Assembly: GCA_965227515.1 (NCBI GenBank)
Contig: CBDDFZ010000002.1
Location: 64,001 to 128,000, forward strand
From: Alphaproteobacteria bacterium
GTDB lineage: Bacteria > Pseudomonadota > Alphaproteobacteria > CALKHQ01
Direction: 5' to 3'
Length of the DNA: 64,000 nt
This document shows positions 26,012-59,782 of the stretch, piece by piece. Each line of letters begins with the position of its first letter. Position 1 is the first letter of the stretch. The notes under the pieces are model-generated. The model was not told the origin of the DNA and did not search any database. It saw only the letters and a list, made by a program, of their open reading frames with translations. The translations under genes and the position numbers were made by a program.

Positions 26012-26088
26012 GGGCCCGTAGCTCAATTGGTTAGAGCCGGCCGCTCATAACGGTCTGGTTGCAGGTTCGAGTCCTGCCGGGCCCACCA
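26012..26088 (+). tRNA. tRNA-Ile2 (CAT anticodon, lysidine type)
   Basis: Cloverleaf with acceptor stem GGGCCCG/CGGGCCC, anticodon loop CTCATAA, T-loop GTTCGAG and encoded CCA. It lacks the initiator C1:A72 mismatch and resembles ileX-type tRNAs; elongator Met is the less likely alternative. Confidence 0.9.
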
Positions 26089-26099
26089 CCCAGTCTCGC
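26083..26099 (+). repeat. attL core, overlapping the tRNA CCA end
   Basis: CCACCACCCAGTCTCGC, identical to 59766-59782. Confidence 0.9.
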
Positions 26100-26289
26100 A
26101 CATTGTCGTCTGCGCTGCTGTTGTTGCCAGAAGTGGCGGAACTCTGGGCTTTCTGGCGCGCTGTTTGGCCAAGAACGTGCGGAACGCGTCTCCGTTTGCG
26201 CGGTCTCCGGCGCGAATTCCAGGCGCGTCTCTGTTCGGCATTATTGACGACCAAACCATCGCTTTGAATTGGCGGCGCGGTGACCGGGC

Positions 26290-27954
26290 TCAGTCGAATC
26301 CAAGTGCTTGGCGTTGGTTGTGCCAGTCGAGCGGCAGCTTGGGCAACCGCTTCAGACGTTCGGCTGTTAGCCCAATGGGCTGGCGACCATCGACGATCGC
26401 CTCAACGATGGACGGCGCGAGAAAGGCGAGTGGCAGGAACCTGCTGACGTCGCTTTCGTCGACCTCAAATACCGAAGCGATCTCTCGAACCGTACCGCAC
26501 GCCCCTGACGCCAGTGCGTCGAACCATAGCCGTGCTCGCGCGATCAACATCACGAGGTTTCGATCGGGCGAGACACTCGCACTGTCGGCATGGGCCAGTA
26601 TGATTTTTGTTTCGACTCCACGTCGGCGGAGGGTGATTGGGGCCTCGATCTGGTGTGTCGCCTGTTGGTCGGACACTGTCGATGCGCCGAGCAGCCGTGC
26701 AAGTTCTGCCAGGCCGATGGCAATTCGCAGATACGAATTCGTGACGTCGATTCGTCGAACGACTGGCCGGAGGGCGATCAGCGCGTCGTGTTCGGGCTGA
26801 GCCAGGACGCGATCTATGGAGGCGGTCGCGCGTACGATGTCGTTCGCATCGGTGACCCCGATTAGGTCGATCGTTGCTGCCTTGTCGCTTAGTGCATTTC
26901 TGAGGATCGATAGAATTGCCTGCTCGATCTTGGGTGCCGGCAATCGACATCCGTCACCACGTTGTCGCTCCCCAGTCATCAGTCGATGTGAGGCGTAGTA
27001 GCGATAGCGCCGGCCGTTCTTGCTGGCATGGGTGGGGCTCAGGCAATCGCCTGTCTCGTCGAACATCATGCCTGCGAGCGGAGCTGCCGATGTGGTGTTC
27101 CCGGCACGGCGGCGGGGCGCAGCGTTGTCCGTCAGCCGCGTCTGGACCGCGTGCCACAGCTCTGGATCAATGATGCGCTCGTGCCGCCCATCGAAGGTCT
27201 CACCCTTGTGCGGGATCTTGCCGGCATAAATGGGGTTCGCGAGGAGCTGATAGAGGTTGCCGCGACTGAATATCTTGCCACCGCTGTTTTGCCCGTTCTT
27301 CAATCTGCGGCGCTTTGTGTGGATGCAATCCGTCTCAAGCCGTTGTTGCAGCAGGCGTACCGAACCAAGTTCGAAGTAGAGCTCGAATATCCGCCGCACA
27401 TCGGCGGCCTCTCGTTTATTGATGATGAGCGCCTTGTCTCGCACGTCGTAGCCGAGGGGTGCTGGCCCGCCCATCCACATTCCCTTGCGTTTGGATGCCG
27501 CGATCTTGTCGCGAATGCGTTCCGCCGTGACCTCGCGTTCGAACTGGGCGAACGACAGCAACATGTTTAGCGTTAGCCGGCCCATCGATGTGGTGGTGTT
27601 AAACTGCTGGGTTACGGAGACGAACGAGACCTGCGCCGTGTCGAACCGCTCGACAATCTTGGCGAAGTCGGCAAGGGAGCGGGTCAGGCGGTCGACCTTG
27701 TAGACGACAACCACATCTATGCGGTTGGCTGCTATGTCCTCCAGCAGGTTGCGAAGGCCAGGTCGATCCATGCTTCCGCCAGAGAAGCCGCCATCATCGT
27801 ATCGGGTGGACACCAAGCGCCAGCCCTCACCAGTCTGGCTCCTGATGTAGGCCTCACAGGCGTCTCGTTGCGCGTCCAGGGAGTTGAACTCTTGCTCCAG
27901 TCCATCGTCTGTCGACTTGCGCGTATAGATCGCACAGCGCAGGGCATGGCGCAT
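26290..27954 (-). CDS. Large serine recombinase (resolvase + recombinase domains)
   Basis: CAIYTRKST (catalytic Ser), SLDAQR, YDDGGFSG, RPGL, VYKVDRLTRS, TSMGRLTLNMLLSFAQFERE, PLGY, LANPIYAG. Start trimmed to 27954. Confidence 0.96.
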   Translation of the reverse strand: MRHALRCAIYTRKSTDDGLEQEFNSLDAQRDACEAYIRSQTGEGWRLVSTRYDDGGFSGGSMDRPGLRNLLEDIAANRIDVVVVYKVDRLTRSLADFAKIVERFDTAQVSFVSVTQQFNTTTSMGRLTLNMLLSFAQFEREVTAERIRDKIAASKRKGMWMGGPAPLGYDVRDKALIINKREAADVRRIFELYFELGSVRLLQQRLETDCIHTKRRRLKNGQNSGGKIFSRGNLYQLLANPIYAGKIPHKGETFDGRHERIIDPELWHAVQTRLTDNAAPRRRAGNTTSAAPLAGMMFDETGDCLSPTHASKNGRRYRYYASHRLMTGERQRGDGCRLPAPKIEQAILSILRNALSDKAATIDLIGVTDANDIVRATASIDRVLAQPEHDALIALRPVVRRIDVTNSYLRIAIGLAELARLLGASTVSDQQATHQIEAPITLRRRGVETKIILAHADSASVSPDRNLVMLIARARLWFDALASGACGTVREIASVFEVDESDVSRFLPLAFLAPSIVEAIVDGRQPIGLTAERLKRLPKLPLDWHNQRQALGFD

Positions 27955-27959
27955 CACCG

Positions 27960-28391
27960 TTAACCACCTGCGCTCAGGCCGAAGAAGCGCGGCCCAGACC
28001 AACGTGCACCGGTGATCTGACGCGCGACTGCCGACAAGGATCTGTACCGCGTGCCATTCCAGATGAACTCGCCGTCGGTGACATCGACGACGTGGCTGAT
28101 GCCGTTCCACTCGCGCACAAGTCGGGTGCCGGTTGGAAGGCGTTGAGTCATCTGAAGGGGAGGTTGGCATGGCGAACCTCGCCCGTCTGCCAGCTTCTCC
28201 AGCTTGCGCGCGACGGCGGGCCGGAGCCCGCCGTGTTGCTGACATTGAGTGTGGTAGGCAACCGCGTGGGCCAAGATGCGGCGGCTGATTCCCTTTGGCG
28301 GTGCTGTGCTGAAGTGCATACGCCAATGTGCGACGAGGCCTTTCCGCGCCATATCCGCGACACCAACTGCCTCTTGCTTGATCTCAGTCAT
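27960..28391 (-). CDS. DUF2924-family protein
   Basis: GTRLVREWNG...YRSLSAVARQITGARWSGPRFFGL signature; immediately upstream of the recombinase. Confidence 0.88.
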   Translation of the reverse strand: MTEIKQEAVGVADMARKGLVAHWRMHFSTAPPKGISRRILAHAVAYHTQCQQHGGLRPAVARKLEKLADGRGSPCQPPLQMTQRLPTGTRLVREWNGISHVVDVTDGEFIWNGTRYRSLSAVARQITGARWSGPRFFGLSAGG

Positions 28392-28406
28392 TGGAAGCGA
28401 TTTGGC

Positions 28407-28967
28407 TCAGGCGCTGACGATGCGGTAAACGCGCCCGCGATCCTCAGCTCGCTCGCTGGCGACTTCGTAACCGAGCTTCTTCTTGACGGTGCCGCTGATC
28501 GCTCCGCGGATCGAGTGATGTTGCCAGCCCGTGGCAGCCGCAATCTCGTCGATTGATGCGCCATCCGGTCGTTGCAGTAGCTGGATCAATGCTGCCTGCT
28601 TCGTTGGCTTCTTGTCCGAAGTGGCGTGCGGGGTACTGGATGCGGCCTTGCCGTTTGCAGCCAGGTTGCCAACGCTGTTTGAGCGGTCACTCGAAGCTGG
28701 TTCTGGTGACTCGTCGATGCCGAGGGCTTCTCGACCCACGCTCGTCAATACCAGCGCAAGACCATCGTCACCGTCACGGCGCCAGATCTGTTCCTTCACA
28801 GTTGTTGGTTGCTCGACCAGGAGCCCGCGCTTGACCAGGCTCCTCAGCACGGTGGCGGCGGAACCCTTGTTGAGCTTGAGGCGGGATGGCAATGGGAGGG
28901 CGGCGCCGTCATCCCTCGCCGCGGCCGCTGACAGAATGACGAGTTGCGTGTCGGTGAGTTTGGGCAT
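28407..28967 (-). CDS. DUF3489-family protein (winged-helix-like)
   Basis: MPKLTDTQLVILSAAAARDD...TKQAALIQLLQRPDGASIDEIAAATGWQHHSIRGAISG...RVYRI; GGAGG RBS. Confidence 0.88.
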   Translation of the reverse strand: MPKLTDTQLVILSAAAARDDGAALPLPSRLKLNKGSAATVLRSLVKRGLLVEQPTTVKEQIWRRDGDDGLALVLTSVGREALGIDESPEPASSDRSNSVGNLAANGKAASSTPHATSDKKPTKQAALIQLLQRPDGASIDEIAAATGWQHHSIRGAISGTVKKKLGYEVASERAEDRGRVYRIVSA

Positions 28968-29213
28968 GTAAGCCTCCTGGTGTGAAGCGCCGCGGGATTG
29001 CGGCGCTCCCACCTTCCACAGCCCCGCCGGTCAGCCGGTCGGGGCGGGGCCGGAGGCGGCCCTTAACTCCTGCACACCATCCATGCTTGCCGTGCGGTGG
29101 AAGTCCAACGAAATAATGCGGGAGCTAACTTCAAGTCGACAGCAATCTATGCTAGAAGGCTGATTGCCTTAGATTAATTATTGCCTTTGTGCTGTTGTCT
29201 GTGGTGAGGAGCA

Positions 29214-30506
29214 TTGGGCGGAAATACTGAATCGTGCCACTGCAGGCTACAGCCGCATAAAGGGATTCAGTTGTCACAGTCGCGCTATACACGCACACTA
29301 AAGACGGTCATCGACGTCGATACGATGAAGACTATTTCTGCTGAAAACTTAATGGCAGCATCGCCAACGGAATACAATTTTATCCGTCGTGCCGCGACAC
29401 GATCCTGGCAGCGCGGCGATCCTCGCTTTGTGTGCGTTCGCTGCGGTCACCCAGTTTACGCACCATTGCTCTTCAAGCGACCGTATTGGAAGCACTTCGC
29501 TGGGGCCCCCTCCAATTGCCGGTGGTGGACAGGTCGAACCCAGTCTCCAGAGGCCGTCTCTGCGCGGCAGTTCCTGGGCAATCAAGAAAGCGCTTTGCAC
29601 CTCCGCATCAAGAACATAATCGCTGAACTCCTTGGTCTCGATCCCGAGACAGACGACATTGTCGTCGACAGGTTCATCGTCGCCGACGGAGGTCGGCGGC
29701 GTCCGGATGTCCGCGCCCGTTACGGGGGAAAAGGCGTCGCATTCGAAATTCAGCTTGCCACAACTCAGCTGCCTATAATACTAGCAAGAGAAGAATTCTA
29801 CGAACGACATGGCGTGCATTTGATTTGGGTAACATGGAATTTTGAGCCGGGAAATTTCGAAGATATACCACAATCAATAAAAGACATCTATACTGGTCAT
29901 AATGAGAATATTTTTTCCCTCGATATTGAAACTATAAACCAATCCAGACGTGAAGCGACTCTTGTGATTCGGGCGCACCACCTTGGTTCGCAAGGTTGGA
30001 TCAGTCGGTTGGTGACACTGGATCAACTGACTTGGCCAATTGAAGCGTTACCCTACGCAATTGCACCAGTCGAAGATTGGTCCGAAAAATTCAAGAAAAA
30101 ATGGATATCTAACCATGCAGCCGGGCGTATGACGTGGCAAACAGAGTGTGAATTTCTGGCTACGTTAATTAATTGCCTCCAATTGCCATGCACGCCCTCC
30201 GACTTACAATCCTGCGACCTCACGTCACTAATCAATTGTCTTCTCTCTCTGGAGACCGGTCATCCTATCGGCAGCGCCCAATCAAATATTCTAGAGGTCT
30301 TAAATACCTTTTTATATGCGAAAAGACGGCACCAGTATGCAAAAATTCTTCAGTTCGCTGCGCAAAGGACAGGACATTCAAATCTGTTGAGCGCTAAATC
30401 TGTAGTTGACAAGCTTGAGGTGGCGCTCGCCGCCAAACAAGTCGAAAGATCAACATATGCTGCCAGAATTGTGCGAGCTCTCTTTCCCAATTGGCTCTCT
30501 CAATGA
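29214..30506 (+). CDS. CoiA-like / DUF6035-type zinc-finger PD-(D/E)xK nuclease
   Basis: CVRCG...KHF...C zinc finger, QESALH, RRPDV...AFEIQL nuclease core, FYERHGVHLIWV. Visibly lower GC; start uncertain. Confidence 0.72.
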   Translation: MGGNTESCHCRLQPHKGIQLSQSRYTRTLKTVIDVDTMKTISAENLMAASPTEYNFIRRAATRSWQRGDPRFVCVRCGHPVYAPLLFKRPYWKHFAGAPSNCRWWTGRTQSPEAVSARQFLGNQESALHLRIKNIIAELLGLDPETDDIVVDRFIVADGGRRRPDVRARYGGKGVAFEIQLATTQLPIILAREEFYERHGVHLIWVTWNFEPGNFEDIPQSIKDIYTGHNENIFSLDIETINQSRREATLVIRAHHLGSQGWISRLVTLDQLTWPIEALPYAIAPVEDWSEKFKKKWISNHAAGRMTWQTECEFLATLINCLQLPCTPSDLQSCDLTSLINCLLSLETGHPIGSAQSNILEVLNTFLYAKRRHQYAKILQFAAQRTGHSNLLSAKSVVDKLEVALAAKQVERSTYAARIVRALFPNWLSQ

Positions 30507-31174
30507 TTCCCGTCTGCATCCACAACGAACTTGAACTCAACCTTTAGGACGTCTGCCCCGCGCTCGAAGTGTAAGCGCGGCCGGGCTCTCGTGAACCGGA
30601 CCCCGCTGCGGCGCGCGCACCGCACCCGGTCCCGGCCATTCGGCTTCGATCTCTGGCAGGCTATTGTCGCAGCCGGGGACTGACATGTCCGCCCCCGGCC
30701 ACTTCTCTGCTCCGCACCGCAAGCGGTGCGCTTGGCACCCTCTTTACCAGCTTACATTGAGACGCGGCGGCCTGACCCAATAGCCCCGTCCGGGCTGGCC
30801 CGCAAAACCGTGTGGCCCGGACGCCTTCGGCGCCGCAAGCGGCGGAGCTTTGGGGCCGCAGCCCTTCGATCTCGCGCCAGGAAAGCCCCGCGCAGCATGC
30901 GGGGCTTTCTTTCGTTCTGACGCTCGGCGCTGGCCAGGGGTGTATGCGCACTTTTGCGTCCAAAGCGAAGGGGATGAACCCACAAATCAGGACGACGGCC
31001 AGCGTCAGTCCGACTCCTGGCTGCCGGAAGCGATGGAATTTCGTTCGGCTGAGCCAAATCCTTTGGCCGAGTTCTGGCGATTGGGGCTGAGAGCTCAGAC
31101 TACGCTGAATGAACCGGCCGCTGGCACAGGCGAGCGGCCGGCTCTCTCTTGCCAACTGACAGCAACAATATCTC

Positions 31175-32062
31175 TTAGCAGCTGAAGAAACCGCGATAGC
31201 CTACGGTCAACCCCTCGTCGAGCTGAAACAAGAGCTCCGCATTCAACCGGCCCCACGTGTCGGCTTCATCGTCGGAAAGGGCGTGAACCGTAATGGCGAC
31301 TCCTTCCGCTTCGAACGTCGCATCACCGCTAGCTGCGTCGGCGCGCGCTTCAAGCGGCACGATAACACCGTTGAGCTCCATCACTGCCTGGGTCGCCGCA
31401 TCGTCCTCGGGCGATTGTGTCCACAGGATGGGGTCGGACTCCACGGTGCGCCGGAAACCGCAATGCGGCCCCGCTCCCAGCACATCGTCCGCCTGGTCCG
31501 GCGTTAATGGCCCCGGGTCCAGGGTGGAAATCAGCGTATTCGAAAGAGCATCCGCGATGGTGCCGACTTGCGGAGGTGGATCACGGAAGATGTCCGCCTG
31601 TTTCGCGGAATCGTTGCCGGAAAGATCGGCGATGAGGTAGCGCATTTCCGCGATCTCGCGCTCCTGCGCCTCGATGATCCCGTTGGCCAGCTTGCGCACC
31701 CGTGCGTCTTCAATGCCGGCTCGCTCCGAGGTCATGATCGCGATCGAATGGTGCGGGATCATCGCACGCATGTAGCTGGGCCCGCTCACCGTCACCTGGC
31801 TTCGCACCAGCCACAAGGAGCCGGCGAACACCACGATAGCGCCGAGGAAAATCGCCACATTAGCCTTATTGTTCGCGTACATGCCGAGCATGAAGGCCAG
31901 CATCACGAACGCCATGGTGGCGCCCATCAGAACGGCCATGTAGGCGCGTGTCTCGCTGAAGAAAACATGCTCCCAGGCGTAGGTGTTCAGGTACATGAGG
32001 ACGAACATCACCACCGTGGAGGTGGCGATCATCGCCGCAAATCGGAGATATGAACCCTTCAT
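31175..32062 (-). CDS. DUF305-domain membrane protein
   Basis: Three N-terminal TM helices, then YMRAMIPHHSIAIMTSE...IIEAQEREIAEM (DUF305 ferritin-like fold). Confidence 0.85.
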   Translation of the reverse strand: MKGSYLRFAAMIATSTVVMFVLMYLNTYAWEHVFFSETRAYMAVLMGATMAFVMLAFMLGMYANNKANVAIFLGAIVVFAGSLWLVRSQVTVSGPSYMRAMIPHHSIAIMTSERAGIEDARVRKLANGIIEAQEREIAEMRYLIADLSGNDSAKQADIFRDPPPQVGTIADALSNTLISTLDPGPLTPDQADDVLGAGPHCGFRRTVESDPILWTQSPEDDAATQAVMELNGVIVPLEARADAASGDATFEAEGVAITVHALSDDEADTWGRLNAELLFQLDEGLTVGYRGFFSC

Positions 32063-32077
32063 GTTGGCTGCCTTCCG

Positions 32078-32593
32078 CTAGACGAACAGCAGAACCGCGG
32101 CCATGGCGATCATGCCGAGACCCTCGGTCAGAGTGACGGTGGAGAGCGGCACGCTCAGCACATTGCCCATGCACGGGCAATCGATGTCCAATCCCTTATG
32201 CATTGCATTCAGGACGCCCAGCGTGCCGAACCCGAACACGACGATGGTCGCGATGTAGCTGACCGTGGGCTCGAAGAACGACAGATAGGCAAGCCCTAGT
32301 GCCAGCTCGATGAATGGGTAAACGTAGCCGTAGGCGTGGACCGGTTGCGCCAGCAGGTCGTACATGGCGAACCCGTCCTTGAAGCCCTCCAGGTCGAACA
32401 GCTTCAAGAGCGCAAACACCAGCAGGAACACGCCCATGTAGGCATGCATGAAGGTGCGCATGGTGAAGTCCTGGAAGCCGGCGGAGATCGCCCAGGCGCC
32501 CAGACCGGAAACCAGAACCAGGGATATCAGCGGCCAGTAGTCACCGATCGAGGTGCCCCGGCCCTCCTCGCGGACATGTACGCCTTCGCTCAT
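32078..32593 (-). CDS. MauE/DoxX-family redox-associated membrane protein
   Basis: FALLKLFDL..F..GFAMYDLLA...YPFIELALG...DCPCMG...PLSTVTLTE. Confidence 0.82.
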   Translation of the reverse strand: MSEGVHVREEGRGTSIGDYWPLISLVLVSGLGAWAISAGFQDFTMRTFMHAYMGVFLLVFALLKLFDLEGFKDGFAMYDLLAQPVHAYGYVYPFIELALGLAYLSFFEPTVSYIATIVVFGFGTLGVLNAMHKGLDIDCPCMGNVLSVPLSTVTLTEGLGMIAMAAVLLFV

Positions 32594-32647
32594 GTGCCCA
32601 TCCATTTGTTTGGAACTGGAAGGAGAACGAAGCGCAGTGCAGAGCGG

Positions 32648-32676
32648 TTCCACCTTTCGCCTACTGGAAGGTGGAA
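32648..32676 (-). promoter_or_regulatory. CueR-type operator upstream of the MauE/DoxX and DUF305 genes
   Basis: Minus strand reads ACCTTCC-agtaggc-GAAAGGT, inside the longer palindrome ttccacctt...aaggtggaa. Confidence 0.7.
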
Positions 32677-32721
32677 TCGCACATTGCCGGCATGCGAGGG
32701 ATCGGTTGTCCGTCCAGCCGC

Positions 32722-33234
32722 TCAGGCACGGTCCAGATGGCGTTCTGGCTGCCCTTGAGTGGCCGGCATGCAATCCAGTCGAACGATCATGGCGGTCAAC
32801 ACCTCACATGCATCCCGTACCTGTTGCAGATCGAGCTCGGCTGCGAGCGTGCCGGCGGTTTGGAGTTCCAATGGGCGTAGAGCACCAATCACACGCCGCC
32901 CGCTTTCGCTCAGAGTCACGGTCTTGGCACGACGGTCTTCGGGCGCCGACCGCAACTCAACCAGCCCCTGCGTCCGCAGTTCGGCCACAAGGCGCTGGAT
33001 GTACTGACGGCTGACCGAGGGCCGCATCCGCACCATGTCCGCCAGCGTATGCGGCCCCTTCGCGGCGAGATCGTTGAGCAAGCTACGCTTTCCTGGGGTC
33101 AGGCCGTGGGGCGCGTACAACACTTCGGCGGCCGCTGTGAGGCGATGGTAGAGCGGCGGCACCTGCCAGATGATGCGCAACATCGCCTCCGCGGCGTGTT
33201 GATCGCCCGCCGTCGACTGCTCCTTGCCTGCCAT
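32722..33234 (-). CDS. MarR-family transcriptional regulator
   Basis: Winged helix VSRQYIQRLVAELRTQGLVE...EDRRAKTVTLSESG. Confidence 0.88.
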   Translation of the reverse strand: MAGKEQSTAGDQHAAEAMLRIIWQVPPLYHRLTAAAEVLYAPHGLTPGKRSLLNDLAAKGPHTLADMVRMRPSVSRQYIQRLVAELRTQGLVELRSAPEDRRAKTVTLSESGRRVIGALRPLELQTAGTLAAELDLQQVRDACEVLTAMIVRLDCMPATQGQPERHLDRA

Positions 33235-33267
33235 CGCACCGCCCCCTTTGGAATGACATCGAAATTT

Positions 33268-33287
33268 TTGACAACTGGAGTTGACAA
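33268..33287. promoter_or_regulatory. Probable MarR operator in the divergent promoter
   Basis: Near-palindrome TTGACAAC-tgga-GTTGACAA between the marR-like gene and the methyltransferase gene. Confidence 0.45.
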
Positions 33288-33317
33288 TATTGCCAAGTCG
33301 AGACCACACTCACAAGC

Positions 33318-33785
33318 ATGGTGACCACGGAGGAAGCGCCCGGTATTCGCATCATTCCGCCGCTGCTGTTCCTGGCGGCGCTGGGGGTCGGATTCGGGCT
33401 CGACGCACTGTGGCCAGCTGCAATATTGCCGGATGCGGTGCAATACCCGCTGGGCGCTGTGCTGATCGCGGCGAGTCTTGTCGTGCTGGCGCCGACCCTG
33501 CTGGCCTTCCGCCGCGCTGGCACCCCGTTCGACGTCAGGCGCCGGGCCGAAAGCCTGGTCACCGGCGGGCCGAACCGGTTCTCGCGCAATCCCGGCTACG
33601 TGGCGATGATCGCGACCTGCATCGGCATCGCCATCATGGCCGACCTGGTGTGGGCCCTGCCCTTCCTGGCGCTGGCCACCGTCATCCTCGACCTTGCCGT
33701 GGTGCGGCGGGAGGAGCGGCACCTGGCGGCGCGCTTCGGCGCGGACTATGCGGCCTACCGAAACCGCGTGCGCCGCTGGCTCTGA
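33318..33785 (+). CDS. Isoprenylcysteine carboxyl methyltransferase / PEMT-family membrane protein
   Basis: IPPLLF, LVTGGPNRFSRNPGY, REERHLAARFGADYAAYRNRVRRWL. Confidence 0.9.
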   Translation: MVTTEEAPGIRIIPPLLFLAALGVGFGLDALWPAAILPDAVQYPLGAVLIAASLVVLAPTLLAFRRAGTPFDVRRRAESLVTGGPNRFSRNPGYVAMIATCIGIAIMADLVWALPFLALATVILDLAVVRREERHLAARFGADYAAYRNRVRRWL

Positions 33786-33806
33786 GCCGTTTCCGTCAGT
33801 TGCATC

Positions 33807-33928
33807 TCAGTGGAGCGGCATGCCGCGCGCGATGGCCAGATGATGCGCTTGGTGATGCGCGCCGGTCGCCATCAGCCCAAAGAAGCCCAGCGCCTGGATG
33901 CGGGCCACGTCGGCCGCATCGGCGGCGG
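33807..33928 (-). pseudogene. 3' fragment of a paralog of the 37546-38118 gene
   Basis: Encodes AADAADVARIQALGFFGLMATGAHHQAHHLAIARGMPLH*. 107 bp (33822-33928) match 37564-37670 with 5 mismatches. Confidence 0.85.
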
Positions 33929-34730: not shown

Positions 34731-34733
34731 CGC

Positions 34734-37443: not shown

Positions 37444-37456
37444 TTCGCCTCTATCC

Positions 37457-45954: not shown

Positions 45955-45958
45955 TGTC

Positions 45959-51493: not shown

Positions 51494-52174
51494 TTACCGC
51501 TGATCAGGCCGCCGATAGGTGAGGCGCTTGCCGGCGATGCCCTTGGCGGCCAGTGCGGCGCGTTCGAGGTCGGAGACATCGCGGCTGTTGAAGCGGAAGT
51601 CGAACTCGCCGAGGTAGCAGCGCAGGTGCTTCTGGCTGACGTGGTGGTAGTTACCGCTGATGCCGCGCTTGAGCAGCGAGAACGCGTTCTCGATGGTGTT
51701 GGTGTGCCAGAACTGGCCGCGCACGTATTCCTTGGCGCTGTGGTTGACCGAGCCGTGGCCGCTGAATTCCTCACCGGGTGCGGCGTAGGTCTTGGACTCG
51801 TCGGTCATGAGATAGGAGCCAGGGTCGATGTGGCTGGTGAGGATGGGGCGCAGGGTCTTGGCGGTGACGTCCGGCACATGGAACGAGCGCAGCTTGCCGT
51901 CACGCTCGACCAGCGCCATGACTGCCTCTTTGTTGCGCGGCGCGCGGTGAGCGCGATCCTGGAGCGCTCGAACTCGCTTGAACAGAGTGTCGACTGTCAG
52001 CGGATGGCGGCAGGCAATACTCTGTTAGAGGCCAAGTCGATGGGACTTGCCTTCGAGGGGGCGGCAGCTCAGTATGCCGTGGCGCGGGCAGATGGGCCAG
52101 TTGGTCAGGCTTGGTTGCAGCCAACCGCGTCCCTTGTGTTCGGTGTGGAGGATGGGATTGGCATGGTCGTTCAT
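51494..52174 (-). pseudogene. Decayed IS1595-family transposase
   Basis: The C-terminal part is intact (ALVERDG, LMTDE, VNHSAKEY, HTNTIEN, YLGEFDFRFN). The in-frame N-terminus is degenerate (PICPRHG, GKSHRLGL*) with TAA at 52025-52027 and a deletion of the central region. Confidence 0.85.
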
Positions 52175-52418: not shown

Positions 52419-54164
52419 TCAAACCTCCTTGGCCGTAACGACTGCGCCTTCGCTGGATATATGAGCCTTCAGACGTTCAGCCTGGCTCTTGGGTGTCGCG
52501 ATCGCCAGCAGCCTTTTGGCTCTTGAGGCGGCCACATATAGTTTTCGTGCATCCTCGGCCTTGTCGGCCGGCTCGCCTGTTTCCAAGAAATCCAAGATAC
52601 CCTTGAGAGTGGATGTCGTGACGACACAGACAGCCGGATACTCCTTACCTTTGACCGAATGAATCGTCCGGGGCATCGCTGTTTCGGCTGGTACAGCCGC
52701 AAGCGCCGCATTCAACCCGGCATTCCAAGCCAGCTTTTGAGAAATAGATTTTCCGTCTTCAATCGTTAGTTCGCTTGATAAGAAATCCTTGGCAGCGTCG
52801 TGCCACGCCTTTGCCCCTGCATATTTTATCGGATCAAACCTAAGGGACCTGAGAACAGAGATAACTTTCGGACGCCAGCTAGCAGGTTCTATTTCATTAT
52901 CTGTGAGATATTGATGGTACGACCGGTCGCCTAGGCGCCCCTCCAGTTCCAGGAGAATCCGGTGGACGCTCTCGATGGCCGTTTTCATGTCACTAAAGCC
53001 CGCAGCGAAATGAAAGTCGGTTACGGCTTCGGCAAGCCGGATAGTCCGTTGGCCTGAATTGGTGGGCCGCGGCTGACCCGCGGCGGCCGCACCGCTTGCC
53101 TTTGTTGCCGCGACGATGGGCGCAGATGAAACATCGACACCGGCCTCTCTTAGCAGGGCACAAAATGCCGTGCCAATTGAAGCCGGAACTCCTTTGCCCG
53201 GATAGGACAGAATCTGAACCGGCGCGGTTTCATCCTTCAATTGCCCGAGAGCATCGTCGGGTGCGCCGCGAGCAGCGGGTGGCCTGAACTGGGCGAGGGC
53301 CTTGCAGATATTAGGCGTAGATCGGAAGTTGCCGGTCAAATCCTTGCGCTGGTCGGAGGGAAACGTATCCGCGAACTCAAAAAGATGATCGGTGACGCCG
53401 CCGCGAAATTCATAAATCGATTGATGGGGATCGCAAACGACTTTCACGGGCAGGCCGGAATCACGCAACCATGAGATGACAGTCAGATCGTCGGGGTTGC
53501 AGTCCTGCGCTTCATCTACGATGACCTCGCGAAACCGACCCCTGAGCGCACCGGCGATCCGGCTCGCAAGCGTCTGGTCATTGAGGCGTTCAAGCGCGAC
53601 AGCACGCGCTTCGTCAAAGCCCAACTGGCCCCGTTCGCGTAAGCTGGCACGGAGCCGGGTAGCGGCTGTCGTATACGCTTGAAGCTGATAGTCCTGCTTT
53701 TGGGATACGTCAAAGCCCTTGCGCTTGGCCGCCAAATCAATAATCGCGCCTGTTTGTGGGCAAAAACAGGATAGGGGCAGAGCGTGAGCGCCATTGAACG
53801 GCTCGACTGCAAGATGCGCGATGTCGGCAAGCAGGCGCGGGCGTGCATCGCAATCCTTGAGGCTAAACGGCGCAACTAGGAACTGCCAGACGAAACTGTC
53901 GAAGGAGCCGACAAAGCTCGGAAAGAGGGGCGTGGAAAGCAGTCCTTCCTGCCTGAGCCGGGTATCGAGTTCAATAACGGCGGCTTGCGTAAAGGATATG
54001 AACGCCACGCCGCGTCCCGGCAACATACTCCGAAACACCCGGCGGGCGCGTTCGGTCATCACCCTCGTTTTTCCGGCGCCAGGACAGGCCGTTACAAAGG
54101 CCGAGCCGTCATGACCGATAACAGCGCGTTGCTCGTCGGTGGGATTGAAGGGTAGCTGGCTCAT
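52419..54164 (-). CDS. gajB: UvrD-like helicase (Gabija GajB type)
   Basis: ACPGAGKT, VDEAQD, DPHQSIYEFRG, NFRS, TIHSVKGKEY, YVAASRAK; 4-bp overlap with the upstream OLD nuclease. Confidence 0.82.
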   Translation of the reverse strand: MSQLPFNPTDEQRAVIGHDGSAFVTACPGAGKTRVMTERARRVFRSMLPGRGVAFISFTQAAVIELDTRLRQEGLLSTPLFPSFVGSFDSFVWQFLVAPFSLKDCDARPRLLADIAHLAVEPFNGAHALPLSCFCPQTGAIIDLAAKRKGFDVSQKQDYQLQAYTTAATRLRASLRERGQLGFDEARAVALERLNDQTLASRIAGALRGRFREVIVDEAQDCNPDDLTVISWLRDSGLPVKVVCDPHQSIYEFRGGVTDHLFEFADTFPSDQRKDLTGNFRSTPNICKALAQFRPPAARGAPDDALGQLKDETAPVQILSYPGKGVPASIGTAFCALLREAGVDVSSAPIVAATKASGAAAAGQPRPTNSGQRTIRLAEAVTDFHFAAGFSDMKTAIESVHRILLELEGRLGDRSYHQYLTDNEIEPASWRPKVISVLRSLRFDPIKYAGAKAWHDAAKDFLSSELTIEDGKSISQKLAWNAGLNAALAAVPAETAMPRTIHSVKGKEYPAVCVVTTSTLKGILDFLETGEPADKAEDARKLYVAASRAKRLLAIATPKSQAERLKAHISSEGAVVTAKEV

Positions 54165-55981
54165 TTGACCAGCGCTTTGATGGCGTCCTGGATATAGTCG
54201 GGAACGTTAAATGTATCGCTTGCGCCAACCTTCTCCGCCAGGAGCTGGGCAAAGTCACCCTTCGGCGTGTTCTTGAATAGCTCCTGTATGGCTTTGGCGC
54301 GGATATCGCCATCATTGGCGACCGCTGCGTCCCATTTCGCGGCGGATCGGGGATGAAGCGCCAGATACACGTCTTTCATACATGCGGCATTGCCAGCAGC
54401 GACCAGTTCGGTTTCCAGTGAGTACGTATTCACGCAAACATCGAGAACTTCTGCCGCGCCATTACCTGCTGCCAGCGCATCAAGATCGGCCTTCCGCTTG
54501 TCGCCAGACGCCGCCTCCCCTTCATCTGCTGTGTGCTTGTCGCCGTCCGTTACAATGACTAAACGGTCGGCGATCCGTACTCCGTCATAGGGGGCCAAGA
54601 GGGCCTTGGCGTATGGCACAAAATCAACACCGTCAATCGGCACGAAGACGGCTGAACGAAATATCCGAAAGTCCGCTGGATGGTCTTTGAGGACATAATG
54701 CTTGGCGAGAACGGGCAACAGCAACGCTTCGGCAATGCCTTCGACCAGCAGCACCCTGCCGCCAAACAGCAGGGCAGATTTGGTAACGTCGAGATAGCGG
54801 TCAATCTTCCTGCGGTCGGGCTCAGTAAGGTCAAGTTTGGCAAGAGGGATACACCGGGATTCGGGCCGCGGTGGCGGCTTCTCTGCTGCCTGTGTTTCAG
54901 CGGCCTCATCGGGTGCAGGCTTGTCCGCCGCTTCACCACCCATCACCACTGGCGCGATCGATCGGACGAAAACGAGGCTCTTGCTAGGGACCCATGCGGA
55001 CAGGTTAGGAGAATGCGTCGCGACGATGACCTGCAAATGCCCGGCGGGTGCGTCCTTGTCGTCCTTGGCTTTAAGGGAATGTTCGGCCCGCTCTTCCAGG
55101 AAGTTCAATACGGCGGCCTGGAGCTGCGGATGCAGATGGGCTTCCGGCTCTTCGACAAGGAACATCGTCAGTTCGGCATTATCGGTCCTTTCAAGCTCGA
55201 CGGCGATGGTGGCGATGTACAGAAGGTTCGCAAATCCGTGTCCGGAATATTGCAGGTCTTCTGGCGTAAAACTGTGATCGGCGAGTTTGAAGCGTAGGTC
55301 ACGCGCGATGTCGATAAGCTTTTCATCCGTGCTAAAACCGAGCGTCGCGCCCTGCCGCCGGACACCGGCAGTCAGAATGTCTAGTCCTGTCGCAACGGCG
55401 GTATCAACATCGGTCAGAATGGGATGCTCGCTTGTCCGGGCGAGGCTCTTCGCTACGTCCTCGGGATCACGCTTGCCGAGAAAGTGGTTGAGCAAAGCGT
55501 GAATGCGTGAGGGGTGGCCGGAGGCAAGTGCGTGCTTGGCGTCTCGCAGCGGCGGCAGATAGACATGGCGGATCATATCGTGGGCGCCCGCCTCGGGAAC
55601 GCTCCTAAAGCGGCCCGCCCAAAGAGTAGGCCGAATATGTCCTGGATGGCCTGTTGCATCGTAGGTCAGCCCAAAACATGCCTCCTGCAGCGTGTCGTCT
55701 GTCGTTGCGGAAATCAGCCTTCCTTGTTGCGGTGCGGATAGTTCACAAAATTTGGCGCAAATCTCGAAACTGTGTGGTATTGCGCCAAAGCGAATATCAG
55801 TTGGGTCGCAATATAATTCTCGGCGCCCGCTCAAAGGTCTAGATAAGAGTCGAATGGCATCTATGATATTACTCTTGCCGCCGTTATTTTCTCCAACCAA
55901 AATGGCAAGTCCTTTTTGAAATTCAATTGTATCGCTTGAAAACGACCGGAAGTTTGATAACTGCAGTTGTGCCAAATGCAT
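54161..55981 (-). CDS. gajA: OLD-family ABC-ATPase + TOPRIM endonuclease (Gabija GajA type)
   Basis: GENNGGKS (Walker A), VEEPEAHLHP (Walker B/D-loop), ATHS, LVEGIAE and TDGD (TOPRIM). Confidence 0.85.
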   Translation of the reverse strand: MHLAQLQLSNFRSFSSDTIEFQKGLAILVGENNGGKSNIIDAIRLLSRPLSGRRELYCDPTDIRFGAIPHSFEICAKFCELSAPQQGRLISATTDDTLQEACFGLTYDATGHPGHIRPTLWAGRFRSVPEAGAHDMIRHVYLPPLRDAKHALASGHPSRIHALLNHFLGKRDPEDVAKSLARTSEHPILTDVDTAVATGLDILTAGVRRQGATLGFSTDEKLIDIARDLRFKLADHSFTPEDLQYSGHGFANLLYIATIAVELERTDNAELTMFLVEEPEAHLHPQLQAAVLNFLEERAEHSLKAKDDKDAPAGHLQVIVATHSPNLSAWVPSKSLVFVRSIAPVVMGGEAADKPAPDEAAETQAAEKPPPRPESRCIPLAKLDLTEPDRRKIDRYLDVTKSALLFGGRVLLVEGIAEALLLPVLAKHYVLKDHPADFRIFRSAVFVPIDGVDFVPYAKALLAPYDGVRIADRLVIVTDGDKHTADEGEAASGDKRKADLDALAAGNGAAEVLDVCVNTYSLETELVAAGNAACMKDVYLALHPRSAAKWDAAVANDGDIRAKAIQELFKNTPKGDFAQLLAEKVGASDTFNVPDYIQDAIKALVK

Positions 55982-56109: not shown

Positions 56110-56619
56110 TTACTCGCGGAACTCGCGATCCGAATCCAACAAGGCATCAACAGCAATTCGCACAGCCGCAACTGCATCTGCCGGCGTGACAGTAGAGTAG
56201 TGCCGCATCCGATGTACCGCGGTGCTCGCATTCGTGACGATGTGTTGGAGATCCTGAGGAGCATTTTCATAGAATAAGTCGCTACTGTCGAGATAGATGG
56301 GCCCCACGCGCTCGAGATGCTTTCGGCACCAGGCGTCTACGCCGTGCGCAACCGCAAGGCTGAGGTCATCCGCGTCGCTCGTCGAAGCCATGCAATTGCT
56401 CCCAATTCTATTTGCAGCACGACGAAGATTGTCCCTGGCCTGATCTATATCCCACTGTAACCTGACACTATCGGTCAGGGGGGCACCGACACGGACTTTC
56501 CAGGTCAGCTCCAAATTGACTGCTTCCCCTCGACCGGTTGTGGTCTTCTCAGCCGGCAAGACCACTTGGAACGAGCGACTTCCTTCTTCCCAATAGGGTC
56601 GGGATTTTCGCTCAGACAT
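56110..56619 (-). CDS. Hypothetical protein
   Basis: ORF with a GAGGAGG RBS before the ATG at 56619; no motif recognised. Confidence 0.6.
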   Translation of the reverse strand: MSERKSRPYWEEGSRSFQVVLPAEKTTTGRGEAVNLELTWKVRVGAPLTDSVRLQWDIDQARDNLRRAANRIGSNCMASTSDADDLSLAVAHGVDAWCRKHLERVGPIYLDSSDLFYENAPQDLQHIVTNASTAVHRMRHYSTVTPADAVAAVRIAVDALLDSDREFRE

Positions 56620-56797
56620 GGCTGACCTCCTCGGATCGTTGCGGCTCATCGATGTCCTCGTTCGTTTGCGATCGACCTTCAGAGGAATTGTCGGTGACGC
56701 TCCTGCCAGCACCGTATGGCCTGACTCGACCGTGGACGCCACTCAATTCGGTGGCGTTTTCAAGCCCAAACCGATGGCGCTGCGATCGACCCGCTGT

Positions 56798-57748
56798 CTA
56801 TCCGGCGTCGTTGTGGTTATCTGATGAGGATGCCTCGTTTTCGGCGTTCTGACGAGACGCCTCGGCAGCTGCGGCTGCCTTTTCGAAGCCCTCTGCGAAT
56901 AGACCCATTCCGAGGGCTGCACCCTTGTGCCGCGCCAGCTGCGCCTCGATCGTTTCAGGGAGATCGCCGACCTCCCTTAGCATTGTTTTCAACCGCTTTC
57001 GAAGTTCAGACTTAGTCATTGTCTTGAGGTCCATCATGAAGCACACCGACGAGAACTCGTCACGACGGAAGCTGGGCGGTAGCGCCATCTCGCACCAGCT
57101 CGCTAAAAAAAGTGCACCGGATACATCCTTGCCTTCTATGGTCCATATCAAAGGCTCGCCGCATTTGTCTTCAAGTGCGGAGCAGACATAGAACCAGTCT
57201 CGCATCAGTGCGCCTTGCTTGAATGGGGTGGATTCGTCCTCGGTCAGCGGGCCAAGCAGATGGACTTCGACCTTGGCCTCATCGAGCAGAATGTCGTCGG
57301 GGTGGGGGTATAGGCGGGGTGGTTCACGTCGTTGCTGCTTATATTGGGCCAGGAGGCGCTGCCCCTCCAACTTTCTCCGAGCGAAGTACTCAAAGTTTTT
57401 TAGAGCACGCTTCTGTGCTTTGCGCTCTTCTTCTTTCAAAAGCTCCATCGCGTATCTTTTCGCTAGGCGATTGCCTTTGATGCCATCAAGGACAATACTT
57501 CGCGCGATAGCGTTCGCCGCACTCATTTCAACAGCTTGGCCGTTCTCATTCAGAGTCAGACGACGGAATGCCTCTTGCTCCAACAAACGTTCGAGGCTCC
57601 CATCGCGGAACCGCTTCGGTTCTGGGGCCTGCTTTGCCTTCTTAGGCCGCCCCTTTGGATTGCCGGACTGGCCCTTCCTGAATCTATGCTCTGCCGGCGG
57701 CTTGCCGTAGCCCACCGAGTAGGTCGCATCCTTGCGTTGCCTGCTCAT
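56798..57748 (-). CDS. DUF5681-domain protein (terminase-small-subunit-like N-terminus)
   Basis: YSVGYGKPPAEHRFRKGQSGNPKGRPK signature. Confidence 0.85.
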   Translation of the reverse strand: MSRQRKDATYSVGYGKPPAEHRFRKGQSGNPKGRPKKAKQAPEPKRFRDGSLERLLEQEAFRRLTLNENGQAVEMSAANAIARSIVLDGIKGNRLAKRYAMELLKEEERKAQKRALKNFEYFARRKLEGQRLLAQYKQQRREPPRLYPHPDDILLDEAKVEVHLLGPLTEDESTPFKQGALMRDWFYVCSALEDKCGEPLIWTIEGKDVSGALFLASWCEMALPPSFRRDEFSSVCFMMDLKTMTKSELRKRLKTMLREVGDLPETIEAQLARHKGAALGMGLFAEGFEKAAAAAEASRQNAENEASSSDNHNDAG

Positions 57749-59076
57749 TCGGCTGCCTCCACAGACAGTTGTTGTGTCCGCTCCGCCTCTGTGTCCTCGA
57801 ACGTCGAGCCAGTTGCCCCGAGTGTGGCAGCCTTGCCGGTGAAGCGCTCAAACCGACGCAATATGGTGTCGCAGTAGAGGGGATCGATTTCGATGACGCG
57901 GGCAGTCCGTCCAGTCTTTTCGGCCGCGATCAGCGTTGTGCCGGCGCCCGCAAATGCATCCAACACAATGCCGCCCCGCTCCGAGCAGTCACGTATTGCA
58001 TCGGCAACCAACGCAACTGGCTTGACCGTGGGGTGCATCGCCTGCTCTTCGGCACGCGTCGCAGAAAGACTGCTGATCCCTGCATAGTCCCAGACATTGG
58101 TGCGATATCGTCCCTGGTCGCCCAGACCGAACGTGTTGATATGCGGCGCAGAGCCGACCTTGAACACGAACACCAGCTCGTGCTTGGACCTGTAGAAGGT
58201 GCCCATGCCGCCATTGGTCTTGTTCCAAACGCACAGGTTCTTCAACTCGGTGAACACCTGTTGTCCCGCCGACAGCAGTTCGCCCATGTGACGCCAGTCC
58301 ATGCACACGAACGCAATGGCGCCGTCTCGGCAGGCGGTGGCCGCGGCACCCAGGGTTTCCGCCAGAAATGACGTGAAGGCCGTCTCAGACATTTCGCCGA
58401 CGCCCATGGCGAACTCGCGATGTCTCACGCGGCCCAGGCCGGAGACGTGCCCGTCGATGGGAACATTGTAGGGTGGATCGGTGAAGATCAGATCGACACG
58501 CTCACCTCCAAGGAGAGCCACATAGCTCTCGTGTTGCCTGGCGTCGGCGCAGATGAGCCGGTGACGTCCTAGATCCCAAAGGTCACCCGGCCGTGACACG
58601 GCCGCCTCGGGCGTCTCTGGTATCCAGTCCTCGCCAGCCTCTCGGCGATCCGGCGTTGCTTCGCTCGCGGCGTCAAGGACCAGGTCGATTTCGCCGACCG
58701 AGAAGCCGGTCACTGACAGGTCGAAGTCGAGGTCGATCAGCTCCTGCAGTTCAAGCGCCAAAGTCTCCTGATCCCATCCTGCATTGAGTGCCAACTTGTT
58801 GTCGGCCAGCACATAGGCCCGCCGCTCAGTGGCAGAGAGATGTGAGAGGCGAATGGTTGGGACCGTCTTCAGTCCTAACAGGCGAGCAGCTTCAACCCGA
58901 CCATGGCCGGCAACGATCTCACCGTCGTCGCTGACTAGGACCGGATTGGTGAAGCCGAATTTCTTGATGCTGTCGGCAATCTGGCGAATCTGTTTCTTCG
59001 AGTGTCGGCGCGCATTCCTCTTATAGGGCCGAAGCGTACCGACTGACTGGTCGACAATGCGATGTTCAAAGGCCAC
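57745..59076 (-). CDS. ParB-N-terminal domain + beta-class N4/N6 DNA methyltransferase
   Basis: ParB domain (NARRHS...FGFTNPVLV...AGHGRVEAA...ADNKL), DPPY, HPTVKP, DAFAGAGTT. Confidence 0.93.
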   Translation of the reverse strand: MAFEHRIVDQSVGTLRPYKRNARRHSKKQIRQIADSIKKFGFTNPVLVSDDGEIVAGHGRVEAARLLGLKTVPTIRLSHLSATERRAYVLADNKLALNAGWDQETLALELQELIDLDFDLSVTGFSVGEIDLVLDAASEATPDRREAGEDWIPETPEAAVSRPGDLWDLGRHRLICADARQHESYVALLGGERVDLIFTDPPYNVPIDGHVSGLGRVRHREFAMGVGEMSETAFTSFLAETLGAAATACRDGAIAFVCMDWRHMGELLSAGQQVFTELKNLCVWNKTNGGMGTFYRSKHELVFVFKVGSAPHINTFGLGDQGRYRTNVWDYAGISSLSATRAEEQAMHPTVKPVALVADAIRDCSERGGIVLDAFAGAGTTLIAAEKTGRTARVIEIDPLYCDTILRRFERFTGKAATLGATGSTFEDTEAERTQQLSVEAAE

Positions 59077-59765
59077 TGCGGACTCCTCTAACTAAAGTCA
59101 GCGCGTATCGTCGGCTGGGCGACTCGGAATCGACCCCGCGCCATTCCTCAATAATGATCCGGATGGTGGCGCGAATCAAACATGAACATGCTCGCGCGGC
59201 ACAGACTAAGGGCGTTATTCATCCCGCCGATAGCAGTGAAATAGGTCATCACACTGTTAGGAGGTATGGTTTTATCCCAGTATAGTGGTGTTTCATCCCA
59301 CAATTATCCCATGCTACTGTAGAAACTTCCCAAAATTGTCTGCATCTTCGCTGTGTTATCCCACCGACTATCAGCCAATCCCGTGGTTGGCGCGGGGTTC
59401 AAGCCGAGGAGAATCTGAGGTATCGGTCAGTGGATCGCACCCTTGTGGGCACGGGAATAGCGCCACATCAATGAGATATGCGTGTGACGCGAAGGGGATG
59501 AGCGGCTGTTGGGCCGGCAAATTCATAAAGCGATATGCCCCCGCGCCAACATCCGTAATAGCGCACGGTTCACTGTTCTTGGCCGAGACGACGCTTAGAT
59601 TTCCCTGTTTGTTTGCCTAGGGAAATTGTGGCTAAGTCACTGAAAACACGGGATGAATGGTCGTTGGAATCCCGAGATTCGGGCAGGAATCAATCGAGAT
59701 TTCTGTATATTCCCTGTTATCAGGGACTAACAGGGTAGAGACGAGTTCGCAGAAGACTGCAACCA

Positions 59766-59782
59766 CCACCACCCAGTCTCGC
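59766..59782 (+). repeat. attR core
   Basis: CCACCACCCAGTCTCGC, identical to 26083-26099. Confidence 0.9.

Follow-up and report, generated by a model that had tools for sequence, protein, structure and literature searches.

A terminase-less serine-recombinase island at an alphaproteobacterial tRNA-Met gene, tentatively read as a helper-dependent, satellite-like element

In a stretch of 64,000 nucleotides from an alphaproteobacterium (the window; GTDB lineage CALKHQ01, assembly GCA_965227515.1, contig CBDDFZ010000002.1, forward-strand positions 64,001 to 128,000), a 33.7-kb block at positions 26083-59782 is a genuine mobile island, probably an active one, that a large serine recombinase (LSR) would have inserted at the 3' end of a tRNA-Met gene. 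Our preferred reading, which we put forward tentatively, places it within a family of tRNA-targeting LSR elements of phage descent, in a satellite-like branch that lacks a terminase, and has it packaged by a helper phage. Transfer by routes that the island does not direct is nearly as likely. The phage genes of the same LSR/DUF2924 island would then serve only integration, excision, regulation and establishment, with the ParB-methylase acting as an anti-restriction methylase and the DUF5681 and DUF3489 proteins as DNA-binding regulators, and the DNA would move by generalized or lateral transduction, conjugative mobilisation or transformation. Descent from a prophage by simple decay and packaging by a gene transfer agent (GTA) of the host are considered further below.

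The island's backbone consists of five intact open reading frames (ORFs) on the minus strand, in the order ParB-methylase, DUF5681, cargo, DUF3489, DUF2924 and LSR. This order had been proposed in an initial annotation made from the sequence alone, and Pfam agrees for each gene. The LSR (26290-27954, 554 residues) has a Resolvase catalytic domain with its serine (Pfam 5.6e-40) followed by a Recombinase domain (4.8e-14), the architecture by which a large serine recombinase is recognised from sequence, and ends in a family-specific C-terminal domain at about residues 430-553. PHROG matches are phrog_95 (5.5e-97) and, at residues 430-553, phrog_14161. A 678-residue ORF call for this gene has its start too far upstream: only from residue 132 onwards does it match the Resolvase domain, and the 554-residue form matches phrog_95 from residue 1. 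Residues Y10, R12 and S14 are invariant across 32 aligned relatives. In NCBIfam, the catalytic half also matches parts of the CcrB and CcrA models, but an assignment to Ccr was rejected, as the scores are much too low for these families (126 bits, with a cut-off of 900). Five nucleotides upstream of the recombinase start lies a DUF2924 protein of 143 residues (27960-28391, Pfam 3.8e-39), the predicted recombinase partner, and next to it a DUF3489 protein of 201 residues (28407-29012, Pfam 1.3e-28), matched over its full length by phrog_10315. At the far end, a 443-residue fusion of ParB_N and N6_N4 DNA methyltransferase domains (57745-59076; Pfam ParB_N 9.9e-07, N6_N4_Mtase 5.5e-29; phrog_498 1.3e-130) overlaps the start of a long-form DUF5681 protein (56798-57748, 316 residues, Pfam 1.5e-19) by 4 nt. 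PADLOC types this methylase as a type II MTase (MTase_II, 9.5e-100), which favours the undirected routes.

PHROG families match all five backbone genes. Among the 40 island ORFs, 15 of which have no Pfam match at all, Pfam finds no capsid, portal, tail, terminase, Rep/primase, relaxase or type IV secretion system (T4SS) family, as had been noted at the outset for the structural, Rep, relaxase and T4SS genes. The island thus has an integrase and lacks virion genes, but has no primase or Rep family that would make up a replication module of the type found in phage-inducible chromosomal islands (PICIs). That these ORFs include no relaxase, oriT-type protein or T4SS family argues against the undirected routes; absence of an oriT itself is not inferable from sequence alone, and the relaxase and T4SS negative refers to Pfam on the 40 ORFs.

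The only tRNA that ARAGORN detects in the window is a tRNA-Met (anticodon CAT) at 26012-26088 on the plus strand (Rfam RF00005, 66.8 bits), and Rfam returns no other family between 25500 and 60500. This gene is the putative integration target and would stay intact. An exact 17-nt direct repeat, CCACCACCCAGTCTCGC, marks the presumed attL core at 26083-26099 and the attR core at 59766-59782 (blastn-short 17/17), and its first six nucleotides, CCACCA, are the tRNA 3' end. The initial annotation was right that only these bases lie in the tRNA, but not about the extent of the repeat, which runs exactly for 17 nt and then on to 141 nt at 76% identity (26083-26223 vs. 59766-59906). The 141-nt repeat has no further copy anywhere in the 5.5-Mb genome. 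Its left copy would be the element-borne P' arm between tRNA and recombinase stop, with a CAGTCT motif directly after CCA as in other islands, and its right copy is presumably the native tRNA trailer (B'). The P arm is a non-coding, lower-GC stretch of 689 bp from the methylase start to attR (59077-59765), whose sole ORF (59285-59620) has no Pfam match; scanning the attR-side region for promoters and terminators yielded no signal stronger than those in shuffled sequences. GC content is 0.68 at 24001-26000, drops to 0.53-0.69 within the block (mostly 0.53-0.66, with a minimum of 0.527 at 46001-48000) and is 0.66 at 60001-62000. In an inferred attP of 50 bp, two inverted arms of 10 nt that mismatch at one position, GTCGTCTGCG at 26105-26114 and CGCAGAAGAC at 59748-59757, stand on either side of the core, and the dyad centre falls directly after the terminal A of the tRNA. 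Because equally good arms occur in 8% of 500 shuffles, they are only suggestive of an att-site dyad, and none were found at the candidate att site of a relative at a tRNA-Ser (G402).

The module is single-copy in the genome and lies on the second contig or replicon (1.45 Mb), a location that counts towards undirected transfer. No empty site was found among 41 genomes searched with the right flank; the two nearest relatives, which belong to another genus, retain the ABC-transporter gene of that flank without a tRNA beside it. Past the core, the native trailer (59783-59906) and the element trailer (26100-26223) are 75% identical over about 124 nt, and both hold an AAGTGGC(A/G)G motif that recurs in two further tRNA-Met islands (L191, L202), there within the element arm. 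This likeness could reflect mimicry that preserves tRNA 3' processing, acquisition from a previous host, or the leftover of a former occupant.

Modelling supports a predicted complex in which DUF2924 docks on the C-terminal domain of the LSR. The model scored ipSAE values of 0.71, 0.71 and 0.72, and the best of three controls reached 0.00. The mark applied is reached by 58 of 80 solved complexes and by 2 of 110 mismatched pairs, counts that are only roughly valid here because our own alignments (A2, A3) were used. Contacts agree between runs to at least 56%, and the partner pLDDT is at least 68. The modelled interface places residues 8-68 of DUF2924, its N-terminal half, on LSR residues 468-544, that is, on the family-specific extension matched by phrog_14161. 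From this we infer that DUF2924 may be a targeting or directionality subunit of the recombinase. The initial annotation had offered DUF2924 or DUF3489 as directionality factor or regulator; of this, recombinase binding by DUF2924 is predicted by the model, and DUF3489, with a weak N-terminal MarR-like winged helix (MarR_2, 1.6e-4), is a candidate regulator.

Placement at a tRNA end recurs across the family. The tRNA 3' end faces the LSR stop at a distance of 205 bp in the window, 253 bp at the tRNA-Ser of G402, 257 bp at a tRNA-Ala (G401) and 302 bp at a tRNA-Ser in a compact, terminase-bearing module (G301). Among 18 additional colinear modules, ten show a tRNA placed in this way, at 186-1068 bp, 8 of these within 450 bp. 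Over 25 modules, a tRNA stands 186-441 bp from the LSR end in 12 and within 1.1 kb in 14. The targets, always oriented opposite to the LSR, are tRNA genes for Met, Ser, Ala and Val. No facing tRNA was seen at the LSR end in G404, G077 and G376, and the module of G105 ends at its contig end. On the element side, the sequence right after CCA is CAGTCT-like in the window and in four other islands (L191, L202, L200, L198), and TAAGTCATTGA in G301 and two others (L190, L203), with a near-identical form in G402. These post-CCA motifs fit a conserved element half-site, with crossover at the tRNA end. Targeting of tRNA 3' ends is usually credited to tyrosine integrases, and a literature search that was not exhaustive found no paper on such targeting by this LSR family.

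The compact module of G077 (L181/L182), which lacks the F3 terminase, borders directly on the 3' end of a repB gene, and a 480-nt copy of the repB end, 92% identical, lies 23 kb away. The LSR family may thus also target plasmid partition genes. We rejected the 480-nt repeat as an element boundary: it is a partial repB duplication, and the enclosed 17 kb includes a cyclic-glucan-synthase-like gene.

Relatives were collected with an alignment of long-DUF5681 homologues (A1), which was required, as a single-sequence DUF5681 search of the genome contigs returned none. Scanning genome contigs and IMG/VR gave 333 and 134 confirmed loci, of which the best 80 in each set were compared, with layouts taken from tblastn of the window's backbone proteins and all-versus-all ORF clustering. 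A ParB-methylase stands directly upstream of DUF5681 in 68/80 genome loci and 72/80 IMG/VR loci. In the IMG/VR loci the five genes are contiguous; 45/80 are colinear, in the order ParB-methylase, DUF5681, large terminase (TerL), DUF3489 where present, DUF2924 and LSR, and 20 are divergent. TerL follows DUF5681 in 66/80 IMG/VR loci, in 52 of the 59 with at least 2 kb downstream, and in 44 of the 49 with a DUF5681 shorter than 200 residues; this ORF family matches Terminase_6C (3.3e-16 and 5.8e-14), and a second family matches Terminase_6N (3e-10). Among the genome loci, TerL follows in 0/80, and in 0/71 with at least 2 kb downstream. DUF5681 has at least 230 residues in 59 of the 68 measured among those 71 loci, as against 4 of 58 measured in IMG/VR. 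These layouts bear on the two leading readings in opposite ways. The lack of a terminase in the long-form branch counts towards undirected transfer. However, the methylase/DUF5681 pair has been kept adjacent in 68/80 long-form loci despite the missing terminase, which argues for a function of the pair itself, and in 66/80 compact relatives its place immediately ahead of the terminase is the classical one of a small terminase subunit (TerS). The general expectation that the backbone genes are phage-type and found near terminases, voiced in the initial annotation, is borne out by these loci, by the PHROG matches, and by two isolated Leptospira phages, LE3 and LE4, in which a DUF5681-like ORF alone directly precedes the annotated large terminase.

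In the three genomes with the best long-form matches, DUF2924 is colinear and lies 11.8, 17.5 and 25.6 kb downstream of DUF5681. These split-layout relatives are 71-74% identical to the window in the methylase, 48% in the LSR and 36% in DUF5681, and their cargo shares MerR, P-type ATPase and multicopper-oxidase families with it (F9, F14, F28). In a class sample of 401 alphaproteobacterial genomes, DUF5681 was matched in 43 and DUF2924 in 97 (two of them, G043 and G242, unpublished). A hand count gives about 27 colinear DUF5681-DUF2924 pairs at spacings of 0.35-28 kb, with one at 71 kb, and the slot between the two sub-modules therefore holds nothing, a terminase, or tens of kilobases of cargo. 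By these comparisons, the window island is a member of a widespread lineage of elements. Relatives with the long form carry no phage modules, in keeping with the initial annotation: besides the missing terminases, the 25 commonest of 137 families among the 145 ORFs downstream of long DUF5681 (60 loci) are neither phage structural nor terminase families, the commonest being Resolvase/Recombinase, MerR, HlyD, Pyr_redox_2 and transposases. On the IMG/VR side, where contigs are short, 1 of 96 flanking ORFs matched a capsid family (Phage_cap_E). Eleven genome loci (L022, L030, L031, L037, L041, L048, L053, L059, L061, L082, L083) have a Peptidase_M78 (ImmA/IrrE-like) gene and, where present, an XRE-type helix-turn-helix gene, divergent upstream of the ParB-methylase. 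The pair looks like an ImmR/ImmA-type induction switch, and it does not occur in the window.

The ancestry of the backbone can be traced in phage genomes. DUF2924 is present in 9 of 50,697 phage records, which comprise Acidithiobacillus phage AcaML1, Wolbachia phage WO and two faecal contigs of 5-6 kb. AcaML1 (JX507079) has an LSR and DUF2924 at one end, followed by two methylases, a Nu1/GpA-type terminase, and portal, capsid and tail genes. The WO records hold DUF2924, once beside an annotated resolvase-family integrase, and a Ralstonia megaplasmid prophage contains an LSR, DUF2924, two methylases, DUF3489 and a large terminase. What the backbone corresponds to in such phages is therefore their integration end together with the region of the methylases and the start of packaging, while the virion genes are missing. 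The methylases of AcaML1 and of the Ralstonia prophage are accompanied by a Nu1-type or an unnamed small terminase, and the annotation shows no DUF5681 there; the methylase is therefore not tied to DUF5681, a further point for undirected transfer. According to its annotation, the Ralstonia solanacearum prophage (L189; CP076122.1, 1,901,761-1,928,558) has the LSR and DUF2924 at one end and a type III effector gene between the methylases and the DUF3489 and terminase genes. The two human-faecal records, labelled 'Bacteriophage sp.', are MT839917.1 (5,365 nt), which also holds DUF5681, and MT837927.1 (5,961 nt); the compact module may exist as units of about 5-6 kb in virome data.

Under helper packaging, the LSR and its constant DUF2924 partner would insert the element exactly at the tRNA 3' end, with a crossover within CCACCACCCAGTCTCGC just after the tRNA CCA, so that the tRNA would stay whole and the element would supply a look-alike trailer. 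The ParB-methylase/DUF5681 pair would be the remnant of a phage packaging-initiation module from which this branch lost the terminase, while its DUF5681 gained a private C-terminal domain of 200 residues. The excised circle or concatemers could then be recognised through the pair and passed to the terminase and capsids of a helper, the methylase would shield the DNA upon arrival in a new cell, and the cargo, copper resistance and Gabija, would repay the host for carriage. Helper packaging is the most economical account of a terminase-less branch that keeps the pair. The argument comes from gene position and ancestry, and for this reason we hold it with less than moderate confidence. A broader reading goes further and seems to us rather doubtful. 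It would make the LSR and an obligate DUF2924 a tRNA-3'-end integration system on which a large class of phage parasites without capsids, so far undescribed, is built. Compact members would bring their own terminase, and in the branch seen in the window, which would have given it up, the long DUF5681, with its basic N-terminal arm, would form with the ParB-methylase a new packaging adaptor through which resistance and defence cargo of 15-35 kb enters the capsids of a helper. On this broader reading, the elements would be the first satellites of the kind described for Alphaproteobacteria.

A number of results weigh against packaging by a helper, and the first concern DUF5681. The long protein has 248 homologues at E ≤ 1e-5, of which the best show 45-56% identity, have a length of about 300 residues and are mostly metagenomic. 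It consists of a basic Gly/Pro N-terminal motif, a DUF5681 core as in the short terminase-linked forms, and a C-terminal domain of about 200 residues private to the long form; the N-terminal 100 residues are common to both forms (hhalign 99.8%, 99 columns). The C-terminal 206 residues match 121 cluster representatives among 1.84 billion, most of them proteins of 270-340 residues matching in the same place and the rest shorter fragments and two longer multi-stretch hits, and none of the 121 indicates another fused domain. AlphaFold2 models have a mean pLDDT of 80 (long form) and 75 (short form). In the long form the first 50 residues are disordered and hold an invariant GYGKPP..RF.KGQSGNP.GRP motif; its KGRPK core may resemble an AT-hook. 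No Terminase_2, 4 or 5 family was matched in Pfam at E ≤ 0.01, and phrog_26239, the PHROG of DUF5681, is a family of unknown function. At E ≤ 0.001, Foldseek returned nothing for the long model (PDB, BFVD) or for the short one (PDB), and the VIA wide search gave no convincing match for either, with best Z scores of 6.0 for the long form, where the match lay on long helices, and 3.7 for the short form. Only in 21st place came the small terminase of NV1, at Z 2.9 and an rmsd of 11 Å. A profile of alignment A1 found only Roquin-2 among PDB sequences (E 0.45), and an ESM Atlas search gave no usable match. The suggestion in the initial annotation that DUF5681 is TerS-like was thus not upheld by the sequence searches or by the structure prediction it had called for, which revealed no TerS family, TerS fold or known fold, and this result favours undirected transfer. 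What points to TerS is gene position: the window has no terminase for DUF5681 to stand directly upstream of, and that arrangement occurs only in relatives. Searched by tblastn, the long DUF5681 has one weak match in the 50,697 phage records and 6 matches in 72,556 plasmid records, and DNA from both island ends matches plasmids only partially (66-77%). A 139-residue DUF5681 protein is reported from the virion proteome of Salmonella phage STGO-35-1, and the literature searched gave no functional account of DUF5681, DUF2924 or DUF3489.

Further difficulties for helper packaging lie in the island itself, its relatives and the host genome. Pfam identified neither a terminase nor a replication gene in the island. 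Nor is element size conserved: from methylase start to LSR stop, the backbone spans 16.6, 21.8 and 30.1 kb in the three split-layout relatives vs. 32.8 kb in the window, and DUF5681-DUF2924 spacing goes down to 0.35 kb. The earlier argument that 33.7 kb could fit a capsid therefore carries no weight, and such widely varying sizes speak for undirected transfer. The association of short DUF5681 with terminases is confounded by sampling, as IMG/VR consists of contigs with viral hallmarks and similarity to the long form decided the ranking of the genome loci. The host genome, 99.67% complete, has no PF05065 capsid and no PF04860 portal, although both searches were positive in Caulobacter and three other control genomes. 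With the query used, the terminase of the compact relatives had no match in it either, and searches of the genome for terminase, capsid and portal genes identified no helper phage. Contig 1 does hold three Terminase_6C genes, at about 1.757, 2.635 and 3.334 Mb, and one T7-type portal (PF12236). Two of the three belong to duplicated clusters (L179), inverted copies of a small phage-like unit at about 1,755,000-1,761,000 and 3,331,000-3,337,000. Each copy has an AAA_25 protein, a small subunit of the Terminase_2 family, a large terminase divided between two ORFs (276 + 248 residues), an 848-residue ORF without Pfam match and an Asp-protease-like ORF. At about 2,634,500-2,639,700 (L180), the C-terminal half of a large terminase has as neighbours a T7-type head-tail connector (PF12236, 5e-129) and a protein with RTX repeats, perhaps a podovirus-like prophage or what is left of one.

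Public sequencing runs speak for a recent spread of the island. One run contains a 4-kb query in full and is probably the source of the window. Three runs from other studies, with differently named organisms (X2, X3, X4), contain 27-43% of the words of this query. Their contigs covering 24100-44099 include island pieces with 0-4 differences each (X2 in total 7,405 nt, 8 differences). Of the two pieces of the flank, both found in X2 only, one has 41 differences and 33 gaps over 894 nt, the other 19 differences over 909 nt. The island is therefore more conserved than its flank, though flank and island contigs of X2 possibly come from different organisms of that run, which counts against our preferred reading. 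Contig joints in these runs (e.g. 26086 to 35077, at a depth of 1088 with a side of 31) were rejected as evidence of excision, as they resemble artefacts from repeats or foreign organisms. No RNA datasets are listed among the public runs that share the query.

It is improbable that the island is a decayed prophage, that is, an AcaML1- or WO-like phage that lost its structural and replication genes, was filled with cargo, and is now immobile or moved by chance. Complete phages with an LSR, DUF2924 and methylases do exist, as AcaML1 and the Ralstonia prophage illustrate, WO records hold DUF2924, and the island contains an IS1595 fragment. However, the five backbone ORFs are all intact, the 17-nt repeats are exact, and near-identical island pieces are present in runs of three other studies. 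The split layout also recurs in relatives at 36-74% protein identity, and the gene pair in dozens of loci, a pattern that independent decay would not yield. Packaging by a host GTA, which the initial annotation had raised, is very improbable: the host is an alphaproteobacterium, and many Alphaproteobacteria carry RcGTA-like clusters, but the nearly complete genome lacks the PF05065 capsid and PF04860 portal that the controls possess, and RcGTA-type heads hold about 4 kb, far below 33.7 kb.

The cargo begins with a DUF6035/CoiA-like nuclease-domain protein on the plus strand (29214-30506, 430 residues; Pfam DUF6035 7.4e-19, CoiA_nuc 1.2e-5). A copper- and metal-resistance block follows at 31175-50657, in which Pfam identifies CopB, two multicopper oxidases, a cupredoxin, a P-type ATPase with HMBD/YHS domains and a MerR/CueR regulator, along with cytochromes c, DUF411, ScsC/DsbA, a DsbD-like protein, an L,D-transpeptidase and an MFS transporter. 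Within this block, a 107-nt direct repeat at 95% identity (33822-33928 and 37564-37670, 3.7 kb apart) may be a recombination joint of two metal-resistance modules; many of the variant positions in other sequencing runs cluster at 37.6-38.5 kb. On the minus strand, a 141-residue fragment of an IS1595-family transposase (51494-51919; Pfam DDE_Tnp_IS1595 1.4e-28) covers only profile positions 42-153. A Gabija defence pair occupies 52419-55981, also on the minus strand, with GajA at 54161-55981 and GajB at 52419-54164 adjacent and overlapping by 4 nt; PADLOC matches both over their full length (3.5e-286 and 3.2e-247). Directly after DUF5681, a 210-residue minus-strand ORF (56110-56742) has no Pfam, PHROG, NCBIfam or PADLOC match and no homologue across 160 relative loci.

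If helper packaging is true, copper resistance and anti-phage systems of Alphaproteobacteria, including algal and aquaculture associates, would travel on a class of phage-dependent islands. Satellite finders in current use would overlook such islands because the islands lack the marker genes of these tools. The LSR/DUF2924 pair may target the conserved tRNA 3' end, which bears on site choice by serine integrases and on their use in genome engineering. DUF5681, DUF2924 and DUF3489 each gain a concrete hypothesis, as packaging adaptor, integrase subunit and regulator, respectively.

Among the nearest counterparts of the island are the compact modules in IMG/VR and alphaproteobacterial genomes. 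They share its five genes, in the same order and orientation in 45/80 IMG/VR loci, and the module of G301 also has the same tRNA-end geometry. In contrast to the window, where 27 kb of cargo fills this slot, compact modules have a large terminase there, and their DUF5681 is short, about 130-190 residues. No published description of them was found in the literature searched. AcaML1 and Wolbachia WO resemble the island in having DUF2924 directly upstream of a serine recombinase at one genome end, and in AcaML1 DNA methylases stand before the terminase region. The Ralstonia prophage has DUF3489 in common with the island, there next to the terminase; the large terminase lies at the end of the stretch, up to which its annotation was read. 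Unlike the island, AcaML1 is a complete phage, with a Nu1/GpA-type terminase and portal, capsid, tail and primase genes, and the island has DUF5681 instead.

Among known satellites, classical PICIs measure about 10-15 kb, and the island is larger. The main text on integrative mobile elements found encapsidated in virions (VEIMEs; PMC9618062), the nearest concept in the literature searched, describes integrases in more than 80% of them, some being serine recombinases, and small terminases and methyltransferases in some. As far as that text covers them, VEIMEs and PICIs resemble the island as integrative elements beside a tRNA that lack virion genes and carry packaging-related and defence genes; the island differs in that it lacks a replication module, AlpA and any recognised TerS family. 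The set of ParB-methylase, DUF5681, DUF3489, DUF2924 and LSR is not named in that main text, where 'ParB' and 'large terminase' occur 0 times, and no description of it was found in the main texts of the literature on serine integrases, terminases, satellites and methyltransferases. The staphylococcal cassette chromosome mec (SCCmec) offers a parallel of another kind: its cassettes, driven by the Ccr LSRs, likewise carry resistance cargo and no transfer genes of their own. SCCmec inserts at the 3' end of a conserved gene. The island differs from these cassettes in its other accessory genes, its tRNA target and its phage-derived backbone.

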